Below are positions 6,779-51,027 of a stretch of 64,000 nucleotides of DNA, one piece after another. The position numbers and the translations under genes were made by a program. The first letter of the stretch is position 1. The number at the start of each line of letters is the position of its first letter. The notes beneath the pieces are model-generated. The model was given only the letters and a program-made list of their open reading frames with translations, did no database searches and was not told where the DNA came from. This stretch comes from Escherichia phage vB_EcoM_FB. The DNA is taken from the sequence record MT682711.1. One strand, given 5' to 3'.

Positions 6779-6854
6779 TGGTCGAGGCAGTAGGGATCGA
6801 ACCTACGACCTAGGACTTAGAAGGTCCTTGCTCTTCCTTCTGAGCTATGCCCCG
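6779..6854 (-). tRNA. tRNA-Arg (anticodon TCT)
   Basis: hand-folded cloverleaf: acceptor CGGGGCA/TGCCTCG, D-stem GCTC/GAGC, anticodon stem AGGAC/GTCCT with loop CTTCTAA, T-arm GTAGG-TTCGATC-CCTAC, encoded CCA. Confidence 0.85.
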
Positions 6855-7567: not shown

Positions 7568-7638
7568 TGGCCCTGGGTGGAATCGAACCACCATCCAGCG
7601 ATTATGAGTCGCTCGCTTGACCGTCCAGCTACAGGGCC
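7568..7638 (-). tRNA. tRNA with CAT anticodon (Ile2-type as in T4, or Met)
   Basis: acceptor GGCCCTG/CAGGGCC perfect, anticodon stem AGCGA/TCGCT with loop CTCATAA, T-arm GGTGG-TTCGATT-CCACC; CCA not encoded. Confidence 0.8.
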
Positions 7639-40013: not shown

Positions 40014-40441
40014 TGTTCCTTATCCCTGATGATTACGAATTAACTCTAGAAAGCGTAGAGGCCAAAATTCCAGAAGCACAGGGACGTTTTGCTGCTCTTT
40101 CTGAAGCGCTCGAGAAAAGCGATATAAATAATCTTGTAGAGAACATGATTGCTGAAGGCGATATCGAATGTGCTATCGCTCTTGGTTCTTTAAATGAATC
40201 AATGGCTCTTAACGAATTTATAGTTAAACACGTTTCCTCTAAAGGTGAGCTTACTCGTACTAAAGATATTAAAACCCGTCAACGTAATGCGTTCCAAACG
40301 ACAGGTTTATCTAAAGCAAAACGCCGTCAGATTGCTCGTAAAGCATCTAAAACCAAACGTGCTAATCCGTCTACTCAAGTACGTGCCGAACGTAAGCGTA
40401 AGAAAGCCCGTTCTAAACGTAAAGCTTTTGGACTCAACTAA
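40013..40441 (+). CDS. 68: prohead core protein gp68
   Basis: 142 aa (T4 141), basic C-terminus, synteny. Confidence 0.7.
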
Positions 40442-41076
40442 TGAAACCTGAATTGCTCATCGAACATTGGGGACAACCAGGTGAAATTATCGATGGGGTT
40501 CCTATGTTGGAATCTCATGATGGAAAAAATTCTGGGCTTGCTCCCGGCCTTTATATAGAAGGCATTTTCATGCAAGCAGAGGTAGTTAACCGTAATAAAC
40601 GGCTTTACCCAAAACCTATTTTGGAAAAAGCCGTTGCCGATTATATGGCAGAACAGGTTGCTACTAAACAAGCTTTAGGAGAATTAAACCACCCACCTCG
40701 TGCTAACGTTGACCCTATGCAAGCTGCTATCATTATTGAAGATATGTGGTGGAAAGGTAATGATGTTTATGGACGTGCACGTATCATCGAAGGTGACCAT
40801 GGCCCGGGTGATAAACTAGCTGCAAATATCCGAGCTGGCTGGGTTCCTGGTGTTAGTTCTCGCGGTCTTGGTTCTTTAACTGAAACCAATAAAGGATATA
40901 AGCGTGTAAACGAAGGTTATAAATTAACCGTCGGTGTTGATGCAGTATGGGGACCATCTGCTCCTGATGCTTATGTAACTCCGAAGCAAATTACAGAATC
41001 ACAAACGGTAGAAACCGATACCAGTGCCGATGACGCCTTTATGGCTCTCGCAGAGGCCATGAAAAAAGCGTTATAA
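40441..41076 (+). CDS. 21: prohead core protease gp21
   Basis: 211 aa (T4 212), synteny. Confidence 0.85.
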   Translation: MKPELLIEHWGQPGEIIDGVPMLESHDGKNSGLAPGLYIEGIFMQAEVVNRNKRLYPKPILEKAVADYMAEQVATKQALGELNHPPRANVDPMQAAIIIEDMWWKGNDVYGRARIIEGDHGPGDKLAANIRAGWVPGVSSRGLGSLTETNKGYKRVNEGYKLTVGVDAVWGPSAPDAYVTPKQITESQTVETDTSADDAFMALAEAMKKAL

Positions 41077-41943: not shown

Positions 41944-43503
41944 ATGAAAAAGAATGCATTAGTTCAAAAATGGTCCGCTCTGCTGGAAAACGAAGCTCTT
42001 CCTGAAATCGTTGGTGCTTCTAAACAAGCTATCATCGCTAAAATTTTCGAAAACCAGGAACAAGACATCCTGACTGCCCCGGAATACCGTGATGAAAAAA
42101 TCTCTGAAGCATTTGGTTCTTTCCTGACCGAAGCTGAAATTGGTGGTGACCACGGTTATGATGCTACCAATATCGCAGCTGGCCAGACTTCTGGTGCTGT
42201 AACTCAGATTGGGCCGGCAGTAATGGGTATGGTTCGTCGTGCTATTCCTCATCTGATTGCTTTTGATATTTGTGGTGTTCAGCCTCTGAATAACCCTACC
42301 GGCCAGGTATTTGCCCTGCGCGCAGTTTATGGTAAAGACCCTGTCGCTGCTGGCGCTAAAGAAGCTTTCCACCCGATGTATTCTCCGGACTCTATGTTCT
42401 CTGGTCAGGGTGCTGCTGAATCTTTCGAAGCACTGGCTGCAAGCAAAGTTCTGGAAGTTGGTAAAATTTATTCTCACTTCTTCGAAGCTACCGGTGCTGC
42501 ACACTTCCAGGCTGTTGAAGCCGTAACCGTTGATGCTGCTGCTACCGATGCCGCTAAACTGGATGCTGCTGTTACCGCTTTGATTGAAGCTGGTAAGTTG
42601 GCTGAATTGGCTGAAGGTATGGCTACTTCTATCGCTGAACTTCAGGAAGGCTTTAACGGTTCTACCGATAACCCGTGGAACGAAATGGGCTTCCGCATCG
42701 ACAAACAAGTTATCGAAGCTAAATCCCGTCAGCTGAAAGCAAGCTACTCTATCGAACTGGCACAGGACCTTCGTGCAGTACACGGTATGGATGCAGATGC
42801 TGAACTGTCCGGTATCCTTGCTACCGAAATTATGCTCGAAATCAACCGTGAAGTTATCGATTGGATTAACTACTCTGCACAGGTTGGTAAATCTGGTATG
42901 ACCAACACCGTTGGCGCTAAAGCTGGTGTGTTTGACTTCCAGGACCCGATTGATATCCGTGGTGCTCGTTGGGCCGGTGAGAGCTTTAAAGCCCTTCTGT
43001 TCCAGATTGATAAAGAAGCAGCCGAAATCGCTCGTCAGACCGGTCGTGGTGCTGGTAACTTCATCATCGCTTCCCGTAACGTAGTTAACGTACTGGCTGC
43101 AGTTGATACTTCTGTAAGTTATGCAGCTCAAGGTCTGGGTCAAGGTTTCAACGTTGACACAACCAAAGCAGTATTTGCCGGTGTTCTTGGTGGTAAATAT
43201 CGCGTTTACATCGACCAGTATGCACGTTCCGATTACTTCACCATCGGTTATAAAGGCGCTAACGAAATGGACGCAGGTATCTACTATGCTCCGTACGTTG
43301 CACTGACCCCGCTGCGTGGTTCCGATCCGAAGAACTTCCAACCGGTAATGGGCTTCAAAACTCGTTACGGTATCGGTATCAACCCGTTCGCTGACCCTGC
43401 TGCTCAGGCTCCTACCAAACGTATCCAGAATGGTATGCCTGACATCGTTAACAGCCTTGGTCTGAATGGTTACTTCCGTCGCGTATATGTTAAAGGTATC
43501 TAA
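41944..43503 (+). CDS. 23: major capsid protein gp23
   Basis: 519 aa; near-identical long blocks to T4 gp23 as recalled (e.g. EIGGDHGY.ATNIAAGQTSGAVTQIGPAVMGMVRRAIP, C-terminal RRVYVKGI). Confidence 0.97.
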   Translation: MKKNALVQKWSALLENEALPEIVGASKQAIIAKIFENQEQDILTAPEYRDEKISEAFGSFLTEAEIGGDHGYDATNIAAGQTSGAVTQIGPAVMGMVRRAIPHLIAFDICGVQPLNNPTGQVFALRAVYGKDPVAAGAKEAFHPMYSPDSMFSGQGAAESFEALAASKVLEVGKIYSHFFEATGAAHFQAVEAVTVDAAATDAAKLDAAVTALIEAGKLAELAEGMATSIAELQEGFNGSTDNPWNEMGFRIDKQVIEAKSRQLKASYSIELAQDLRAVHGMDADAELSGILATEIMLEINREVIDWINYSAQVGKSGMTNTVGAKAGVFDFQDPIDIRGARWAGESFKALLFQIDKEAAEIARQTGRGAGNFIIASRNVVNVLAAVDTSVSYAAQGLGQGFNVDTTKAVFAGVLGGKYRVYIDQYARSDYFTIGYKGANEMDAGIYYAPYVALTPLRGSDPKNFQPVMGFKTRYGIGINPFADPAAQAPTKRIQNGMPDIVNSLGLNGYFRRVYVKGI

Positions 43504-43519
43504 GATATAACCTTATTAT

Positions 43520-43549
43520 GGGAGACTTCGGTCTCCCATTCTTGTTTCT
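43520..43549 (+). terminator. rho-independent terminator after gene 23
   Basis: GGGAGAC-TTCG-GTCTCCC followed by a T-rich tail. Confidence 0.6.
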
Positions 43550-43552
43550 GTA

Positions 43553-43819
43553 TTATGCAATCTTAACTCGGCGGTTGATGATATCACGGAAGTCAATACG
43601 ATTTTCTTGGATTTTCAGCCAGTTACCAGATTTGTCTTTGGTATGGGTAGAGTATTCACCGTTCCACCAGAAGTCGGTAGCATAAGCCATGGCTTCGTAT
43701 TTCTTAACTAAGGCATTCACTGCATTACCATTAGGATTGTTACCGAATTTTTCTACCAGAGCTTTGATGTCTTTATCAAGAGCGGAAAGAGTAGTACGAA
43801 TAAAGTTTAACTTGTTCAT
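43553..43819 (-). CDS. small hypothetical protein (88 aa) antisense to the late block
   Basis: ORF-track frame trimmed to ATG after GAGGAG in the conserved early leader; occupies the position segD holds in T4. Confidence 0.55.
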   Translation of the reverse strand: MNKLNFIRTTLSALDKDIKALVEKFGNNPNGNAVNALVKKYEAMAYATDFWWNGEYSTHTKDKSGNWLKIQENRIDFRDIINRRVKIA

Positions 43820-43848
43820 TTTTAATCTCCTCATGTTTTGATAGGTCT

Positions 43849-43878
43849 ATAGTAACATGTGAGAATCTTGCTGTAAAC
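43849..43878 (-). promoter_or_regulatory. T4-type early promoter with conserved leader
   Basis: minus strand GTTTAC-18bp-TACTAT then AGACCTATCAAAACA. Confidence 0.5.
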
Positions 43879-43884
43879 AACTTT

Positions 43885-43892
43885 TATAAATA
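43885..43892 (+). promoter_or_regulatory. late promoter TATAAATA upstream of gene 24
   Basis: exact consensus 28 nt before the ATG. Confidence 0.6.
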
Positions 43893-43920
43893 AACATATA
43901 CCCTCAATAAGGAAAGCGCA

Positions 43921-45204
43921 ATGGCAAAGATTAACGAATTACTGCGCGAGTCAACAACTACTTCCAGCAACTCATTGGGTCGCCCTAATCTTGTTGCTTT
44001 GACCCGTGCTACAACCAAATTGATTTACCGTGATATTATCGCCGAACAACGTACTAGCCAGCCTATTGCTGCACTGTATGGTGTCAAATATCTTACCCCT
44101 GATAATGAATTTAGTTTCCAGACAGGTGCCTCTTATGGTGGTGAAGTTGGTTCTAAAGACCGTGAAACTATCCCAGAACTCACAGATAAGGCCCAGGCGA
44201 TTGCTCAGGGTGAATATTTCAAGTACCAGAATGTGGTTTATAAGGCTCTTAAAGCAAGCCCACTCGCGTCCACTAGCGCCACAGAATTGGCTGATGCTCT
44301 TCAAGAAGGTTTAGTGTCATTAACATGTCGTCTGGTTCCTGATGCTGCCCATACCACTAAATTTGAAGCGAGTGATGTAGAAATCTCTGATGCTGTATTC
44401 CAGGTTAATAAATGGAATGCTCCGGTTAAGACCCGTAAATTGAAGACGGCTTTGACTGTAGAATTAGCGCAGGATATGGAATCAAATGGCTTTGACGCGC
44501 CGGCGTTCTTAGAAGACCTCTTGGCTACAGTAATGGCAGATGAAATTAATAAAGACGTTCTGCAATCTCTAATAACCGTATCCAAACGTTATAAAGTTAC
44601 TGGTGTATCTGATAACGGCATCATCGATTTGTCTTATGACAGTGCTCCTGAATCTGCACGTAAACTTTATGAACTCGTTTGTGAGATGAATTCTGAAATC
44701 CAGAAAACTACTTCTTATTCTGGCACGTTTGTTGTGGCTTCAAGTCGTGTGGCTGCAATGCTTGCAGGTTCTGGCTGGTTAAAACATAAACCCGAAGATA
44801 ATAATTGGCTTCCGGAAACTGCATACGGATATTTGTTGAATGGTCTGCCTCTGTTTTGTGACGTTAACAGTCCATTAGATTATGTTACCGTTGGTGTTAA
44901 AGAGAATTACGGCGGTAATGAAGTTGTCGGTTCTATTTTCTACGCTCCCTATACCGAAGGCTTAGATTTAGATGACCAAGAACACGTCGGTGCTTATAAG
45001 GTTATTGTTGACCCGGATTCATTACAACCTTCTATTTCTCTGATGGTTCGTTATGCACTATCAGCTAACCCGTACACCGTGGCTAAAGACGATAAAGAAG
45101 CTCGTGTTATCGATGCAACCAATATGGATTTAATGGCTGGACAGAGCAATATGTCTTATCTGGTTGGCGTTAAACTTCCGGCAATTATTTACGAGGCTGA
45201 TTAA
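43921..45204 (+). CDS. 24: capsid vertex protein gp24
   Basis: 427 aa, same length as T4 gp24; N-terminus MAKINELLRESTTT and ELAQD/INKDVLQSLITVSKRYKVTG blocks. Confidence 0.9.
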   Translation: MAKINELLRESTTTSSNSLGRPNLVALTRATTKLIYRDIIAEQRTSQPIAALYGVKYLTPDNEFSFQTGASYGGEVGSKDRETIPELTDKAQAIAQGEYFKYQNVVYKALKASPLASTSATELADALQEGLVSLTCRLVPDAAHTTKFEASDVEISDAVFQVNKWNAPVKTRKLKTALTVELAQDMESNGFDAPAFLEDLLATVMADEINKDVLQSLITVSKRYKVTGVSDNGIIDLSYDSAPESARKLYELVCEMNSEIQKTTSYSGTFVVASSRVAAMLAGSGWLKHKPEDNNWLPETAYGYLLNGLPLFCDVNSPLDYVTVGVKENYGGNEVVGSIFYAPYTEGLDLDDQEHVGAYKVIVDPDSLQPSISLMVRYALSANPYTVAKDDKEARVIDATNMDLMAGQSNMSYLVGVKLPAIIYEAD

Positions 45205-46484
45205 TGTCTAAGATTGTAGACCTAATTAAAGAATCCACATTGACGGCTGCCAGCTCGGTTGGCCGTCCTGCTCTTCTTTCATACACCCAAGCAACTAATA
45301 AACGAATCTTTAAAGCCCTAGTTGCTGAACAAAAAACAAATCAACCGGTTGCTGCTCTGTATGGGGTACGTGTACTGAATCCTGACGACAAAATGACTTA
45401 TCTTGGTGGAGCAACATTTGCGGGCCAGATTGGTATGACGGAACGTGAAAATATTCCAGAATTTACTGATTCATCTACAGCTTATGCGGTCGGTGATATG
45501 TTCCAGTTTGAAAGCGTAGTGTTTAAAGTTCTAGAAGCATCTCCTTTCGCCGGAACCACAGAAACCAACCTCAGCGAAGTTATTTCTGAAGCAGTGGCAG
45601 CCGGCCATATCCGTATGGTGTCGGATGCTGCTATTACTTCTAAATTTGAACAAGGCCATCCTGAAATTGCTGAAACCGGATTCCGTATCGACAAATGGCA
45701 ATCTGAAGTTAAATCACGTAAACTGAAAACTTCATTGACAGTCGAATTAGCCCAAGACCTAGAATCTAACGGGTTTAATGCTCCTAATTTCGTTGAAAAT
45801 CTGCTAGGCATTCAAATGGCAGAAGAAATTAATAAGGATGTATTACAGTCATTAATTACCGTGAGCTCTCGTTTTAAAGTCCAGGGTGTTTCTGAAAAGG
45901 GTGTATTAGACCTTACCAACCCTCGCTACGATAATGCCCAGGACCGTGCTCGCACATTATATTATTATATGTGTGAGATGAACTCTGCCGTCCAACGACA
46001 GACTTCTTTTGCCGGGACTTATGCAGTAGCTAGTTCTCGTTGTGCTGCTATTCTCGCCGCCTCTGGTTGGGTTGAGAAAAAGGAAGACCAGGACGAATTG
46101 GCTTATGGTATATTAAAGAATGGCCTACCACTTTATGCTGATATGAATAGTCTATGTGATTATGTTATTGTTGGTGTAAATGCCCAGATGGGTGAAGGAC
46201 AGACGGTCGCATCTTTATATTATGCGCCTTATACGGAAGGTTTGAATGTGGTTGACGAAGAAGGTGATACTTCAGTTGGTGAATTTAAGGTTATTGTTGA
46301 CCCGGAAAGCTTACAACCTACAGTAGCATTGCTTGCTCGTTATGCATTGACTGCAAACCCTTATACCGTCGCTAAGGACGATAAAGAAGCCCGCATTATT
46401 GATGGTTCTGATATGGACAAAATGGCTAATCAAAGTCAATTGAGTTCTTATCTCGGCGTAAAATTACCGCCTTTAGAAAAATAA
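45204..46484 (+). CDS. second gp24-like capsid vertex protein (diverged paralog)
   Basis: 426 aa collinear with the gene at 43921-45204 over its whole length, roughly half identical by eye. Confidence 0.8.
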   Translation: MSKIVDLIKESTLTAASSVGRPALLSYTQATNKRIFKALVAEQKTNQPVAALYGVRVLNPDDKMTYLGGATFAGQIGMTERENIPEFTDSSTAYAVGDMFQFESVVFKVLEASPFAGTTETNLSEVISEAVAAGHIRMVSDAAITSKFEQGHPEIAETGFRIDKWQSEVKSRKLKTSLTVELAQDLESNGFNAPNFVENLLGIQMAEEINKDVLQSLITVSSRFKVQGVSEKGVLDLTNPRYDNAQDRARTLYYYMCEMNSAVQRQTSFAGTYAVASSRCAAILAASGWVEKKEDQDELAYGILKNGLPLYADMNSLCDYVIVGVNAQMGEGQTVASLYYAPYTEGLNVVDEEGDTSVGEFKVIVDPESLQPTVALLARYALTANPYTVAKDDKEARIIDGSDMDKMANQSQLSSYLGVKLPPLEK

Positions 46485-46510
46485 AAGGGACCTTACGGTC
46501 CCTTTATCGT
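46484..46510. terminator. bidirectional terminator between gp24 paralog and rnlB
   Basis: AAAAGGGACC-TTAC-GGTCCCTTTAT with A/T runs on both sides. Confidence 0.65.
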
Positions 46511-47518
46511 TTATTTGGATACTAGTTCAACCCATACATGTCTTAATGTTTCTTTTACGCACTCAACGAGCTGCTTTTTAACTTCAACGGGATTTTCCGC
46601 ATCAGTTAATTCCAATTCTTCACGGGCGGCTTCTTCAAGGATATCCTGGACTGTCAAGCCCATCACCTTTCCGAAATCCTTCGGCGATACTTCGCCAATC
46701 TTACTGATGACATTGTTAATGCGGTTAACAGTCACATAATCGGTGAATTGCCACATCAAATCCATATCGTCTTGGGACAATACCACTGCAACTTTAATAG
46801 GCTTATCAGACTTTTTCTTCTCGCTGAATTTAGAGTTCTTACATTTAATCGCCACACGATTTCCGTTTGGAAGCCAGGTAGGAACATCAGGTTTCAATAC
46901 AAAGCCTTCAGCCGTGAATACCTTACCTTCTACCTTAGGAATAAAATCGGTTGAGTTTGCAATAGTTAAGCCTGCGTTATCCACTGCAAAATTATAATCA
47001 GGAACAACTGAATCAAAATCATTAGGAAGTTTAATAAGGTCTTCAAAGCTACCAGTGGCCAGACATGGAGCTACCTTAAACTTATGGATAATACAGAAGG
47101 CTTCCATCAATGTATCGGTTAGAACAGATTCTGAGCCATCTTCTTTAGTAACTCGGATATCGAACACATAAAAGTCTTTATCGCCGTAGTCCACATTCTT
47201 CTGGATGCCTGTCCCAGCGAATTCGCCATAAATCTGGTATGACTGATAATTAATCGATTCAATTAGATGTTGAACTGATTTAATAGAATCAGCGTAGTTC
47301 TTAAGTACAATTTCATAACCATAGAAATCTTCAGCAGGGAGGATAGGGCCAGTGCGCTTGGCGCATGTGACTGCGTCACGTTCTATGATTAAACTAAAGT
47401 TGGTTCCATGAATCTTCTCACGTGCTACCCATTCACCACCAGTCAAACCGTTAGTACGGAGTTTTTCGATAAACTTACTGTTGTAGTGGTTTTCGAGACT
47501 GCTATATTTCTTGAACAT
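46511..47518 (-). CDS. rnlB: RNA ligase 2
   Basis: 335 aa (T4 Rnl2 334); ligase motif I REKIHGTN; T4 position after gene 24. Confidence 0.85.
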
Positions 47519-47632
47519 AAATCACCATAATAAATATAATTAAATAGAAGAGCTAGTAGTCTTCTGTCACCAAGCCAAATGGGTTAACGGAAGGACCTAG
47601 ACCCATTATATCACACCTAAATTTAAAGCATA

Positions 47633-47842
47633 TTACTTTGAACTAGAACGCGCTTTGCGCCGAACCTTGTTGTTCAATCTTTTACGATAAACAACCTTTT
47701 CTTTCGCTTTAAATTTGGCCTTGGCTTGTTCTACATCAACCCATGCTTTGGCCATGTCCTTAGCGGTCCCGCCCATTTTTTTAGCAATTTCTATAAAATT
47801 CAACCCAGATTCGTGTAAAAAATGTACTTTAACCTTATCCAT
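47633..47842 (-). CDS. small helix-turn-helix-like basic protein
   Basis: ORF-track frame trimmed to Met14 (GAGAGAA RBS); HTH-like GLNFIEIAKKMGGTAKDMAKAW; Lys/Arg-rich tail. Confidence 0.45.
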   Translation of the reverse strand: MDKVKVHFLHESGLNFIEIAKKMGGTAKDMAKAWVDVEQAKAKFKAKEKVVYRKRLNNKVRRKARSSSK

Positions 47843-47920
47843 AACAATTCTCTCGTTGAGTTGGTAAACCCATCTTAACATAGAATTTTTAACTTGTAAA
47901 CAGGAATTTTGTACTTTAAT

Positions 47921-47943
47921 GCAAAATGGGCCTTGCGGCCCAT
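47921..47943 (-). terminator. rho-independent terminator (minus sense) after hoc
   Basis: ATGGGCC-TTGC-GGCCCAT followed on the minus strand by TTTTGC. Confidence 0.55.
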
Positions 47944-47945
47944 TA

Positions 47946-48794
47946 TTAATAAATGTAATCGTATATAATACCAGCTTCTAAAGCGGTGCGATGAATAATT
48001 CGACCGTTACGAGATTCTTGTACATCAACCTCTGAATAGTCGGTAATCATTTTTTGAAGTGTATATCGGTGCAAATAATACGGGCTATCCGGGTCATCTG
48101 TTTTCCAGTCTTTGCCTTCAAGAGTCATTTTCTGGATTTCATCCATAACCCACCAACCAACCCAAATATATGCTGAATTACGAACAGGGAGTGGATGAAC
48201 GTAAGGTAATTCGCCATCCGGAACCGGTGCGACTTTAGCCGTGACTGTTACATTACCGGTTTTTGTGACAGTCGCCGGGTTATAATCAGTCGCCGAAACC
48301 GCAACAGAAACTTCAATAACCTGTGAACCTTCAGTGCTTGTATCGATTGCTAGAGTATCCGTGGTGCCAACTACAGGAGAACCGTCTTTCTTCCAAGAAT
48401 AGGCAAAAGTAGCACCAGCAGGAGCGCCGACCACATCCGCTTTAAAAGAAGCTGGAGTGCCTTCCGGAACATTAATCGAAGCTGGGGTTAATGTCACAGA
48501 AACACCGGAAATGGTTTTATTCTGGATAGTTAAAGTTGTTTCGGCTTCAGCTGTTTCTGGTTCGCCGTCCGCCGGTGTAGTTGTTGCAACAACTTTAATA
48601 GTCTTGCTGCCTGCCGGGCCAACAGCAACATAATCCATTGCAGCAGTCACAGAAGATTGAGGAACGCCATCAACGGTCCAGACAAATGATTCGGTACCTT
48701 CAGCTGCAGCACCGGAACCGGTCGCAGTGAAATTGGTTGTTGCTCCAATAACGGCCGTAGCCGCCAAAGGAGCCATATCTACGGTATAAGCCAT
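47946..48794 (-). CDS. hoc: head outer capsid protein Hoc (short form)
   Basis: Ig-like beta-rich repeats and position between rnlB and inh; 282 aa versus 376 in T4. Confidence 0.65.
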   Translation of the reverse strand: MAYTVDMAPLAATAVIGATTNFTATGSGAAAEGTESFVWTVDGVPQSSVTAAMDYVAVGPAGSKTIKVVATTTPADGEPETAEAETTLTIQNKTISGVSVTLTPASINVPEGTPASFKADVVGAPAGATFAYSWKKDGSPVVGTTDTLAIDTSTEGSQVIEVSVAVSATDYNPATVTKTGNVTVTAKVAPVPDGELPYVHPLPVRNSAYIWVGWWVMDEIQKMTLEGKDWKTDDPDSPYYLHRYTLQKMITDYSEVDVQESRNGRIIHRTALEAGIIYDYIY

Positions 48795-48803
48795 AATAAA
48801 CCC

Positions 48804-49475
48804 TTATTTTAAAGTGACAAAAGATGAGTTACGAGTTTCACGTACTAATACTGAACCATTACGATTAATGTAATAAATCAGACTAAATAATGTTTGGTGG
48901 GCAGAAGGATGTTGGAAAGCAGTTGGACGTTCTTTCCAATCCGGAGTCTCAGAAATCCATTGGTAAATCCACCAAGGAACGGTGCAATAACCTGGGTTCT
49001 TACCGATAAGCAAAAGATTAGGACTGAAGTTTTCAGGTAAAGAGAATACAGGTTTTTCAGATTCAACAACCTTGGCTATAGCCCCTTTGAATTTCTCTTC
49101 GTCAAATGGAACATCCTCTTCGATAATCTCTACCTTAGGAAGTTCGGCTACCTCAACGACTTCTACTGCAGCCTCAGGGGCATCGAACAACAGGGTGGCT
49201 TCTTCTTTAGCTGGTTCAGCACCATCAACAAATTCGTTAGCACCTGTAAGTTCGTCGGCAGCATCAATCAAATCAGAAATGGACAACCCTTCGGTTTCTG
49301 GAAGTGGTTCGTCAGCCAAGGCTTTAAAGCCTTCAGAGATATCGATAATCAAATTATCAAACGAACGGGTTTTCTTAAGTTTTAAACCGAACTGTTCGCC
49401 GTATTCGATTAACTTAGCTTTAGCTTCTTTTTTATCTTCGAGTGCACGAAGCTCTTCAATATATTGAGTATCCAT
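48804..49475 (-). CDS. inh: Inh-like prohead protease inhibitor
   Basis: 223 aa (T4 Inh 226) between hoc and uvsW; acidic N-terminal half. Confidence 0.6.
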   Translation of the reverse strand: MDTQYIEELRALEDKKEAKAKLIEYGEQFGLKLKKTRSFDNLIIDISEGFKALADEPLPETEGLSISDLIDAADELTGANEFVDGAEPAKEEATLLFDAPEAAVEVVEVAELPKVEIIEEDVPFDEEKFKGAIAKVVESEKPVFSLPENFSPNLLLIGKNPGYCTVPWWIYQWISETPDWKERPTAFQHPSAHQTLFSLIYYINRNGSVLVRETRNSSFVTLK

Positions 49476-49494
49476 AATTAGTCTCTTGTTGGTG

Positions 49495-49530: not shown

Positions 49531-51027
49531 ATGCAAATTCAAGTACATTTTGATAATTTTAGTCATGTCCGTATTGAATGCGATGAATCTACATTCTACG
49601 AACTCAGAGACTATTTTAGCTTTGAAGCTGATGGATATAAATTCAACCCTAAATTTCGTTATGGCCAATGGGACGGACGTATTCGCCTTCTGGATTACAA
49701 CCGTAAACTTCCTTATGGATTGGTCCCTCAAATTAAAAAGTTCGCTGAACAATTTGAATACTCTCTGTGGATTGACCCACGTATTCTTGAACAGGAAGAT
49801 ATTTCTCGTGAAGATTTTGATTCATGGGTGGCTTCTCAAGAAATTTATTCAGGGTCTACCAAGATTGAGCCTCATTGGTATCAGAATGAAGCCGTATACA
49901 ACGGCCTGACAAAACGTCGCGCAATTCTGAATTTACCTACATCTGCAGGTAAATCATTAATCCAGGCACTCCTGAGTCGATATTACGTTGAGAACTATGA
50001 AGGTAAAATCCTCATCTTAGTTCCTACTACTGCACTTGTCGACCAGATGATTAACGACTTCATCGATTATCGTCTGTTCCCTAAAGCCGCAATGCTTGGT
50101 ATTCGTTCAGGTACTGCTCGTGATTCCGATGCAATGATTTATGTTTCAACTTATCAAACCGCTATCAAGCAACCTAAAGAATGGTTTGCTCAGTTCGGTA
50201 TGTTTATGAACGACGAATGCCATTTGGCTACAGGTAAATCTATTTCTACTATCATCGAAGGCCTAACCAACTGTATGTTTAAATTCGGTTTGTCGGGTTC
50301 TTTAAAAGATGGTAAAGCTAATTTAATGCAATATATGGGCCTGTTTGGTGATGTGTTTAAGCCAGTATCCACCTCCCAATTAATGGAAGAAGGACAGGTT
50401 ACTGACCTTAAAATCAACAGTATTTTCCTTCGATACCCTGATGAATTCACCGTTAAGATGAAAGGTAAAGATTACCAATCAGAAATTAAAGTCATTACTA
50501 AGGCTACCCGTCGTAATAAATGGGTTGCTAATTTAGCTGTTAAGCTCGCTAAGAAAGAAGAGAACGTATTCTTGATGTTTAAAAACATCGAGCACGGTAA
50601 AACTCTTTTTGAAATGGTCAAAGAGCAGCATAAAGAAGTTTATTACGTATCAGGCGAAGTTAATACAGAAACTCGTAATGCTCTTAAGTTAATGGCGGAA
50701 AACGGTAAGGGTATTATTGTTGTGGCAAGTTATGGGGTATTTTCTACAGGTATTTCTGTTAAGAATCTCCATCACGTAGTATTTGCCCATCCTGTAAAAT
50801 CTAAAATTATTGTGCTGCAAACCATCGGTCGTGTACTTCGTAAACATGCATCCAAGACCACCGCGCAGGTTTGGGATATTATAGACGACATGGGCGTTAA
50901 GCCTAAATCAGCAAATGCCAAAAAGAAGTATGTTCATTTGAATTATGCATTAAAACATGCCTTAGAACGTATTCAACGTTATGCTGACGAAAAATTTAAT
51001 TACGTAATGAAACAGGTGGATTTATGA
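49531..51027 (+). CDS. uvsW: UvsW DNA/RNA helicase
   Basis: near-identity to T4 UvsW blocks (ILNLPTSAGKS Walker A, MNDECHLATGKSIS, VASYGVFSTGISVKNLHHVV). Confidence 0.95.
   Translation: MQIQVHFDNFSHVRIECDESTFYELRDYFSFEADGYKFNPKFRYGQWDGRIRLLDYNRKLPYGLVPQIKKFAEQFEYSLWIDPRILEQEDISREDFDSWVASQEIYSGSTKIEPHWYQNEAVYNGLTKRRAILNLPTSAGKSLIQALLSRYYVENYEGKILILVPTTALVDQMINDFIDYRLFPKAAMLGIRSGTARDSDAMIYVSTYQTAIKQPKEWFAQFGMFMNDECHLATGKSISTIIEGLTNCMFKFGLSGSLKDGKANLMQYMGLFGDVFKPVSTSQLMEEGQVTDLKINSIFLRYPDEFTVKMKGKDYQSEIKVITKATRRNKWVANLAVKLAKKEENVFLMFKNIEHGKTLFEMVKEQHKEVYYVSGEVNTETRNALKLMAENGKGIIVVASYGVFSTGISVKNLHHVVFAHPVKSKIIVLQTIGRVLRKHASKTTAQVWDIIDDMGVKPKSANAKKKYVHLNYALKHALERIQRYADEKFNYVMKQVDL

Follow-up and report, generated by a model that had tools for sequence, protein, structure and literature searches.

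The tandem gene 24 copies

The genome of Escherichia phage vB_EcoM_FB (sequence record MT682711.1), a phage of the genus Dhakavirus, carries two consecutive genes related to gene 24 of phage T4, which encodes the capsid vertex protein gp24. The second of these genes is the subject of this work. All positions refer to the whole stretch of 64,000 nucleotides (nt) that was analysed, called the window in the following. The first copy, gene 24 or 24a, is located at 43921–45204 on the plus strand and encodes 427 amino acids (aa), the same length as in T4; the next open reading frame (ORF), 24b, follows on the same strand at 45204–46484 and encodes 426 aa. The TAA stop codon of 24a (45202–45204) and the ATG of 24b (45204–45206) overlap by one nucleotide in the sequence TAATG. 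A GAGG Shine-Dalgarno sequence for 24b (45193–45196, plus strand) is situated inside the last codons of 24a (Y-E-A, TAC GAG GCT), 7 nt upstream of the 24b start. The gene order in this part of the head cluster is 21, 22, 23, an ORF of 93 aa on the minus strand, 24a and 24b. Downstream of and convergent with 24b lies rnlB (46511–47518, minus strand), recognized by the Pfam domains RNA_ligase and T4_Rnl2_C. In T4 rnlB comes after gene 24, whereas in the window it comes after 24b. These features agree with the initial annotation of the locus, in which the two overlapping ORFs, the likeness of the first one to T4 gp24 in length and sequence, and the position of rnlB behind the second one had been pointed out. 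When the region 43500–47600 was searched by megablast, Escherichia phages Bp7, E33 and WG01 matched it along its entire length with 99.7–99.8% identity.

The same annotation had described the 426-aa protein as a diverged paralogue of gp24, collinear with the product of gene 24 over the full length and sharing several sequence blocks with it, and all of this was borne out by the comparisons. In BLASTP, 234 of 428 positions were identical between 24a and 24b (55%; 77% positives; full length; E = 2e-175), and the blocks K[ST]RKLKT..TVELAQD, INKDVLQSLITVS and ANPYTVAKDDKEAR are common to both copies. Both proteins match the Pfam family PF07068 (Gp23), 24a with 330 bits and 24b with 321.6 bits against a cut-off of 24.4, the latter over profile positions 3–376 of 376, and both match phrog_138 (E 7e-122 for 24b). 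The identity to T4 gp24 is 69.7% for 24a and 56% for 24b, and by sequence the T4 gp24 counterpart in the window is 24a, not 24b. Gene 23, encoding the major capsid protein (41944–43503, plus strand; Pfam Gp23, 410 bits), is a distant paralogue of both, with 28% identity to 24b over 286 residues.

A search of PDB with 24b found gp24 at E 3.7e-149 and gp23 at E ~1e-11. Its solved relatives by sequence are T4 gp24 structures (1YUE, 5VF3, 7VS5/7VRT and 8GMO; E ~1e-146 to 1e-149), with gp23 far behind. The AlphaFold2 (AF2) model of 24b, made from an alignment of 75 sequences, had a mean predicted local distance difference test score of 73.6 and a predicted template modelling (TM) score of 0.70. The best Foldseek match of the model was mature T4 gp24, gp24* (5vf3_a; TM 0.87/0.89, E 6e-51), and the predicted structure has the gp24 fold, i.e., an HK97 fold with an insertion (I) domain.

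Both copies are under equally strong purifying selection. The ratio of nonsynonymous to synonymous substitution rates (dN/dS), estimated pairwise according to Nei-Gojobori and limited to pairs with unsaturated dS, was 0.04–0.07 for 24a and 0.05–0.07 for 24b. Furthermore, the sequence entropy within the clade of 24b orthologues (the b clade) was below that of the canonical gp24 clade in 19 of 21 entropy windows. This excludes a decaying or non-functional duplicate. Nothing apart from the divergence from 24a speaks for decay, while the ORF is intact in all genomes examined, the ribosome binding site at the junction is conserved and the low dN/dS effectively refutes it.

Codon usage and GC content were similar in 24a and 24b and typical of moderately expressed structural genes, with a codon adaptation index of 0.40 for 24b, 0.45 for 24a and 0.42 for gene 20. 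A foreign origin of 24b was also considered on the basis of composition, and no signal was found (GC 0.421 vs. 0.424; GC at third codon positions 0.315 vs. 0.337). The codon usage speaks against a role of 24b outside the virion, be it as an assembly factor or as a decoy that mimics gp24 outside the particle. It is true that nothing in the sequence proves incorporation, and that proteomic data on 24b were not found in the literature. However, 24b can be aligned with gp24 from end to end, the stretches corresponding to the spine helix and P-domain, i.e., the core regions that form capsomers, are 75–85% identical, and the cleavage site described below is retained, which makes a non-virion role highly improbable.

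Distribution and age of the second copy

The 24a/24b pair is already known as annotation in dozens of phage genomes. Two coding sequences of Bp7 are annotated as “head vertex protein” (AEN93945.1 and AEN93944.1, the latter being EpBp7_0227), the genes of JS98 (EF469154) are named “24a” and “24b” (24b being AAU29304.1), and the same names are used in JS10 and IME08. In VR5 and VR26 the products are called “capsid vertex protein I/II”, and in CGG4-1 “head vertex protein I/II”. The pair is therefore not new as annotation. The 24b of Bp7, JS98, VR5/VR26 and CGG4-1 is the same gene as in the window, likewise arranged in tandem with 24a and next to rnlB. The Bp7 protein is 99.8% identical to 24b of the window, and the DNA of the two phages 99.7% identical over 4.1 kb, whereas the b proteins of JS98 and VR26 are only ~90% identical to it. 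A full-text search of the literature, which did not cover the JS98 genome paper, found nothing on the duplication or on virion proteomics of a carrier phage. What our comparisons add to the existing annotation is the age, the breadth and the interface-focused divergence of the 24b clade.

A survey of related genomes for the duplication, as proposed with the initial annotation, recovered the pair widely. By tblastn, at least 82 phage records contained a match to 24b with at least 80% identity, and the listed records that carry b had three matching places each, namely 24a, 24b and gene 23. A search of 5.8 billion proteins for 24b homologues gave a graded series of 24b-like proteins (P0001–P0021) from 90% down to 66% identity, with all other gp24s at 52–63%. 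The genomic context was visible for 14 loci: the window, JS98, VR5 and ESCO10 (Dhakavirus), VR26 (Gaprivervirus), NP4 (Gelderlandvirus), Marfa (Marfavirus), Cronus (Roskildevirus) and six metagenomic contigs. In all 14 the b-type gene was placed directly 3' of the a-type gene, with stop and start codons overlapping or abutting. The b clade spans at least five genera, Dhakavirus, Gaprivervirus, Gelderlandvirus, Marfavirus and Roskildevirus, in addition to the metagenomic contigs; both types are encoded also by Erwinia phage FBB1. With the signature ATN[KR]RIF and its place directly 3' of an a-type gene 24, the 24b of the window belongs to a well-marked “24b / vertex protein II” clade and is a member of the gp23/gp24 family of the gp24 type.

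A neighbour-joining tree was made from 132 gp24 sequences, rooted on distant gp24s and tested with 100 bootstraps. The b clade was monophyletic and separate from the canonical (T4-orthologous) gp24 clade in 100 of 100 bootstraps, and a sister relationship to the 24a clade alone was recovered in none. The point of attachment was deep and varied between bootstraps: in ~41% of the bootstraps it was sister to the whole group of gp24s from enterobacterial and Acinetobacter phages, and in ~23% it was placed beside the Jiaodavirus/Tegunavirus group. Six of the residues diagnostic for b, L25, S26, N32, F36, R56 and F267, are shared with at least one outgroup gp24, i.e., those of Krischvirus, Slopekvirus and Aeromonas phage 31.2. 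At most of these positions the states of the canonical clade, with the Acinetobacter phage proteins included, are derived. This distribution of states argues that b split off before the radiation of the canonical gp24 crown group, and that it represents an ancient rather than a recent departure from 24a.

The identity between the copies was uniform. Within genomes, a and b were 52–57.5% identical in 11 of the 11 genomes compared, whereas across the same lineages b orthologues were 66–90% and a orthologues 62–95% identical. The steady a–b identity, together with these two ranges, indicates that there was no concerted evolution and that b does not evolve faster. Among identical a/b residues the fraction encoded by the same codon was 0.44, where codon usage predicts 0.43, so that synonymous positions are saturated between the two copies. 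The longest exact nucleotide match between the two genes was 21 nt. Two other histories were considered. A recent local duplication or gene conversion is ruled out by the codon fraction, by the short longest match and by the constant a–b identity. The second history, 24b as a fast-evolving offshoot of 24a, is not supported either, given that the sister relationship was never recovered, that the rates of b are no higher than those of a, and that b shares states with the outgroups.

Some loci showed a more complicated history. In two contigs, L011 and L021, the a-type partner was nearer to T4 gp24 (76% and 72.5%, respectively) than to 24a of the window (65% and 68%), while the b protein was an ordinary member of the b clade. 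Such a pattern would result either from repeated loss of b, including on the line leading to T4, or from exchange of a and b genes by recombination. We also compared 24a and 24b of the window with those of JS98 (L015), ESCO10 (L017) and VR26 (L016). The 24a of JS98 was nearer to the window (dN 0.040) than to VR26 (0.059), and its 24b was nearer to VR26 (dN 0.041) than to the window (0.069). The discordant relationships of the two genes point to recombination within or between 24a and 24b among Dhakaviruses and Gapriverviruses.

Among the canonical proteins, the one nearest to the b clade was the single gp24 of Jiaodavirus Shinkou (L003, 4001–5281). It was 63% identical to both a and b, compared to 52–58% for most other canonical proteins, and more b-like than canonical-like in residues 121–280, yet it had the canonical residue at 13 of the 14 diagnostic sites. 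The possibility that a deletion had fused a and b into the Jiaodavirus gp24 was ruled out, since 13 of 14 diagnostic positions are canonical and no clean breakpoint was seen. A local deviation in codon use was observed between the two window copies in aligned residues 361–400 (~45000–45120 in 24a and 46285–46405 in 24b), where 0.67 of 30 identical residues had the same codon vs. 0.43 expected. The 21-nt exact match (..KVIVDP..) falls in this segment, and the excess is marginal when the 11 windows of the scan are allowed for. It may reflect a short, old gene-conversion tract or a constraint at the codon level.

Expression, predicted processing and clade signature

Late promoters were searched for by the pattern TATAAATA, the T4 late-promoter consensus; 18 such boxes were found in the window, compared to 7.7 expected. 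One of them (43885–43892, plus strand) is located 28 nt 5' of the 24a start codon. It is the only one between gene 23 and rnlB, and no further match was found from 43893 to 49494. No promoter of its own was seen for 24b: there is no TATAAATA box within 24a or 24b, and sigma-70-like matches were at background level. Thus 24b has the setting of a late gene, within the head cluster downstream of gene 23 and behind a late promoter box.

Two terminator-like hairpins flank the pair. The first one, 3' of gene 23 (43518–43539, plus strand), consists of a 9-bp stem containing 5 G-C pairs, with a T-run behind it, and would divide the gene 23 transcript from the 24a-24b unit. The second one (46484–46505), situated between the convergent 24b and rnlB, also has a 9-bp stem with 5 G-C pairs, but with T-runs on both sides; it was found on both strands and would be bidirectional. 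In Salmonella phage NP4 and Klebsiella phage Marfa the corresponding site carries a terminator annotation. The junction between the two genes, tAYGAGGC..TAA(A)TG, is kept in JS98, VR5, ESCO10, VR26 and NP4, with the difference that the codons overlap by 1 nt in the window (TAATG) and abut in JS98 and VR26 (TAAATG). Judging by the single late promoter box, the flanking hairpins and the conserved GAGG/TAATG junction, 24a and 24b form a bicistronic late operon with translation coupled at TAATG, and both proteins are predicted to be made simultaneously.

In T4, cleavage by the prohead protease gp21 follows the consensus (L/I)-x-E. Both copies carry such a motif at the N-terminus, with predicted cleavage after Glu10: residues 7–11 are LLRE|S in 24a (43939–43953, plus strand) and LIKE|S in 24b (45222–45236, plus strand). 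In the b clade the motif L-[L/I]-x-E-S is kept in 23 of 23 proteins, while position x is occupied by 13 different residues; this is the pattern expected if the constraint acts on the protease-recognition positions only. The mature T4 gp24 chain in 5VF3 begins at residue 11. In T4, the 10 N-terminal residues of gp24 are removed by the prohead protease, and the propeptide of gp23 comprises 65 residues (PMC9546572). The window contains the protease gene, gene 21 (40441–41076, plus strand), whose product is predicted to process both gp24 copies. From the conserved site and the presence of gene 21 we infer that 24b is taken up into the prohead, where gp21 would process it.

Presence in the prohead is all that the motif demands, and 24b could accordingly be placed in the shell elsewhere than at ordinary pentameric vertices, for example in peripentonal or portal-proximal capsomers, or occur in the prohead only. 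The b-specific N-terminal signature described below could also mean different neighbours. On the other hand, 24b is 56% identical to gp24 and only 28% to gp23, the latter in a partial alignment; it has the length of gp24 (426 aa) and a gp24-type propeptide of 10 residues, not the 65-residue one of gp23. In addition, we know of no T4-type capsid with a shell protein in such a position, and this placement is considered quite improbable.

Clade-diagnostic positions were defined as those with different residues in the two clades, where conservation reached at least 90% in b and 85% or more in canonical gp24. In T4 numbering there were 14 such positions, 25, 26, 32, 34, 36, 56, 57, 68, 261, 267, 288, 328, 335 and 415, of which eight fall in residues 25–68. 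The 24b of the window differs from the canonical clade at all 14, while 24a shares the residue of T4 at 13 of them and has K at 328, the consensus of canonical gp24. Residues 30–36 of 24b, ATNKRIF (45291–45311, plus strand), form a clade signature in place of ATTKL[IV]Y found in most canonical sequences. ATNKRIF was present in 22 of 23 b-clade sequences, with ATNRRIF in the remaining one, and in 0 of 103 canonical ones. The segment 21–40 is among the most conserved inside each clade, yet only 40% identical between a and b; across both clades together 61 columns are invariant. When T4 gp24 (NP_049789; 1YUE, 5VF3, 7VS5/7VRT) is compared with 24b, the two are alike in Pfam family, length, predicted fold, the 10-residue propeptide motif and the place in the head-gene cluster ahead of rnlB. 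They differ in overall identity (56%), in belonging to separate clades, and in the 14 fixed differences, among them ATNKRIF for ATTKLIY.

The elements in which many of these differences are found make contacts between subunits in the T4 capsid. Residues 26–29 of T4 gp24 are engaged in a parallel beta interaction with an I-domain linker from the next subunit of their pentamer, residues 11–20 stretch out to the adjoining hexamer, and I-domain linker 1 comprises residues ~60–81 (PMC9546572). As the fixed a/b differences fall in such neighbour-contact elements, a and b may prefer like partners, and homopentamers of a (a5) and of b (b5) would then be likelier than random mixing.

Several observations concern the genes around the pair. 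The ORF of 93 aa between gene 23 and 24a (43553–43834, minus strand; phrog_6003, E 8e-50), with no function assigned, is kept in JS98, VR5 and VR26, where it is annotated as “similar to VR7 gp190”. In T4 the corresponding site holds the homing endonuclease gene segD. Between 24b and rnlB, several other 24b lineages have one or two extra plus-strand genes that the window is without: L011 (6327–7046), L013 (2676–4506), L014 (2634–4140), Marfa (L019, 3814–4605) and Cronus (L020, 3827–5342). The first of them encodes 239–334 aa and is annotated as “tail fiber protein” in Cronus, with a faint collagen match in L013; the occasional second one is a “putative structural protein” in the Cronus annotation. 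The IME08 annotation also has a “tail fiber-like protein” between 24b and rnlB. These genes could be head-associated fibre or decoration genes tied to the vertex module. Further downstream in the window, hoc (47946–48794, minus strand) encodes 282 aa, compared to a T4 hoc gene of 1131 nt (376 aa), and the Hoc outer-capsid fibre probably has fewer Ig-like domains than in T4. The gene uvsW is intact (49531–51027, plus strand; 498-aa ORF), while in the Bp7 record (L001, 9033–10101) it is frameshifted after ~49 residues and annotated as two pieces, so that either the window is distinct from the Bp7 record or the latter contains an error at this point. Two tRNA genes were also found in the window, tRNA-Arg (TCT) at 6779–6854 and tRNA-Met (CAT) at 7568–7638, both on the minus strand.

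Probable role in the capsid

In our opinion 24b is probably a second vertex-type shell protein that is expressed along with 24a, processed by gp21 and non-redundant in its role. It would be transcribed with 24a from the single late promoter 5' of 24a and translated via coupling at the TAATG junction. Made as a precursor, it would become part of the prohead shell, be cut by gp21 behind Glu10 in the manner of gp24, and form pentameric capsomers beside 24a. With the b-specific substitutions in the N-terminal segment (25, 26, 32, 34 and 36) and in or near I-domain linker 1 (56, 57 and 68), separate a5 and b5 pentamers would be the likeliest arrangement. Simple redundancy is disfavoured by the long co-retention of the copies under equal constraint, by the lack of homogenisation and by the clade-specific interface signature.

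The two proteins might nevertheless be interchangeable, so that either copy fills any of the 11 vertices in mixed or stochastic pentamers, the pair being kept for dosage, for robust assembly or for diversification. In the latter variant gp24 would be an exposed or targeted component of the capsid, and a second version would serve, e.g., to escape a host defence or an antibody that recognises gp24. Interchangeability would fit the predicted co-transcription and coupling, by which both proteins are made together, the shared fold with its invariant columns, and the case of T4, which does with one gp24 and has vertex subunits that are all alike. The b orthologues of L011 and L021, which stand beside quite different a-type genes, likewise suggest that b is not tightly co-adapted to one a. 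However, simple redundancy seldom lasts so long: dN/dS is ~0.05 for both copies over at least five genera, with synonymous saturation and no concerted evolution, and the fixation of ATNKRIF vs. ATTKLIY in a very conserved N-terminal region points to a distinct, constrained interface. We therefore regard interchangeable vertex proteins as unlikely.

A non-redundant second vertex protein has several points to answer for. A single gene 24 is present in T4 and Jiaodavirus, and many close relatives do with one. In T4 the 55 gp24* subunits all resemble one another in conformation (PMC9546572), and prolate geometry alone therefore does not call for two vertex proteins. The homopentamer arrangement is derived from T4 contacts carried over by alignment, and the confidence of the AF2 model of 24b is moderate, and low for residues 1–31, which carry the signature. 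Finally, no proteomic, genetic or structural study of 24b was found in the full-text literature.

A close parallel to a non-redundant 24a/24b pair is the specialisation of gp23 and gp24 in T4-like phages. There, too, an HK97-fold shell gene was duplicated and both copies were long retained, with a paralogue of the major capsid protein dedicated to pentamers and bypass-24 mutations located in gene 23. The division of labour between gp23 in hexamers and gp24 in pentamers is experimentally established, whereas one between 24a and 24b is a proposal. A more far-reaching version of the non-redundant role would be that two vertex genes are ancestral for much of the enterobacterial Tevenvirinae, that single-gp24 lineages such as T4 lost the second one, and that a5 and b5 homopentamers occupy non-equivalent classes of vertices in the prolate head, one of them being placed, e.g., at the single apical vertex or at the five portal-proximal ones and the other at all remaining vertices. 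Taken as a whole this combination is tentative, and we would give it a minor though real chance. If it is true, the shell of these phages would be made of three dedicated HK97-fold proteins.

Phage T4 serves as the reference system for how large prolate capsids are assembled, and its gp24 is the textbook case of specialisation of a shell protein for five-fold vertices. A second vertex paralogue has been kept for a very long time under strong constraint in a sizeable and therapeutically used group of T4-like phages, comprising JS98-like coliphages, S16-like Salmonella phages, Marfa-like Klebsiella phages and Erwinia phages. Such long retention under constraint implies that the structure or assembly of these capsids has a requirement which is not apparent from T4. 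A partitioning of the two proteins between vertex classes would bear on how non-equivalent vertices are defined in prolate capsids, on how capsid stability is tuned, and on the evolution of new shell components.

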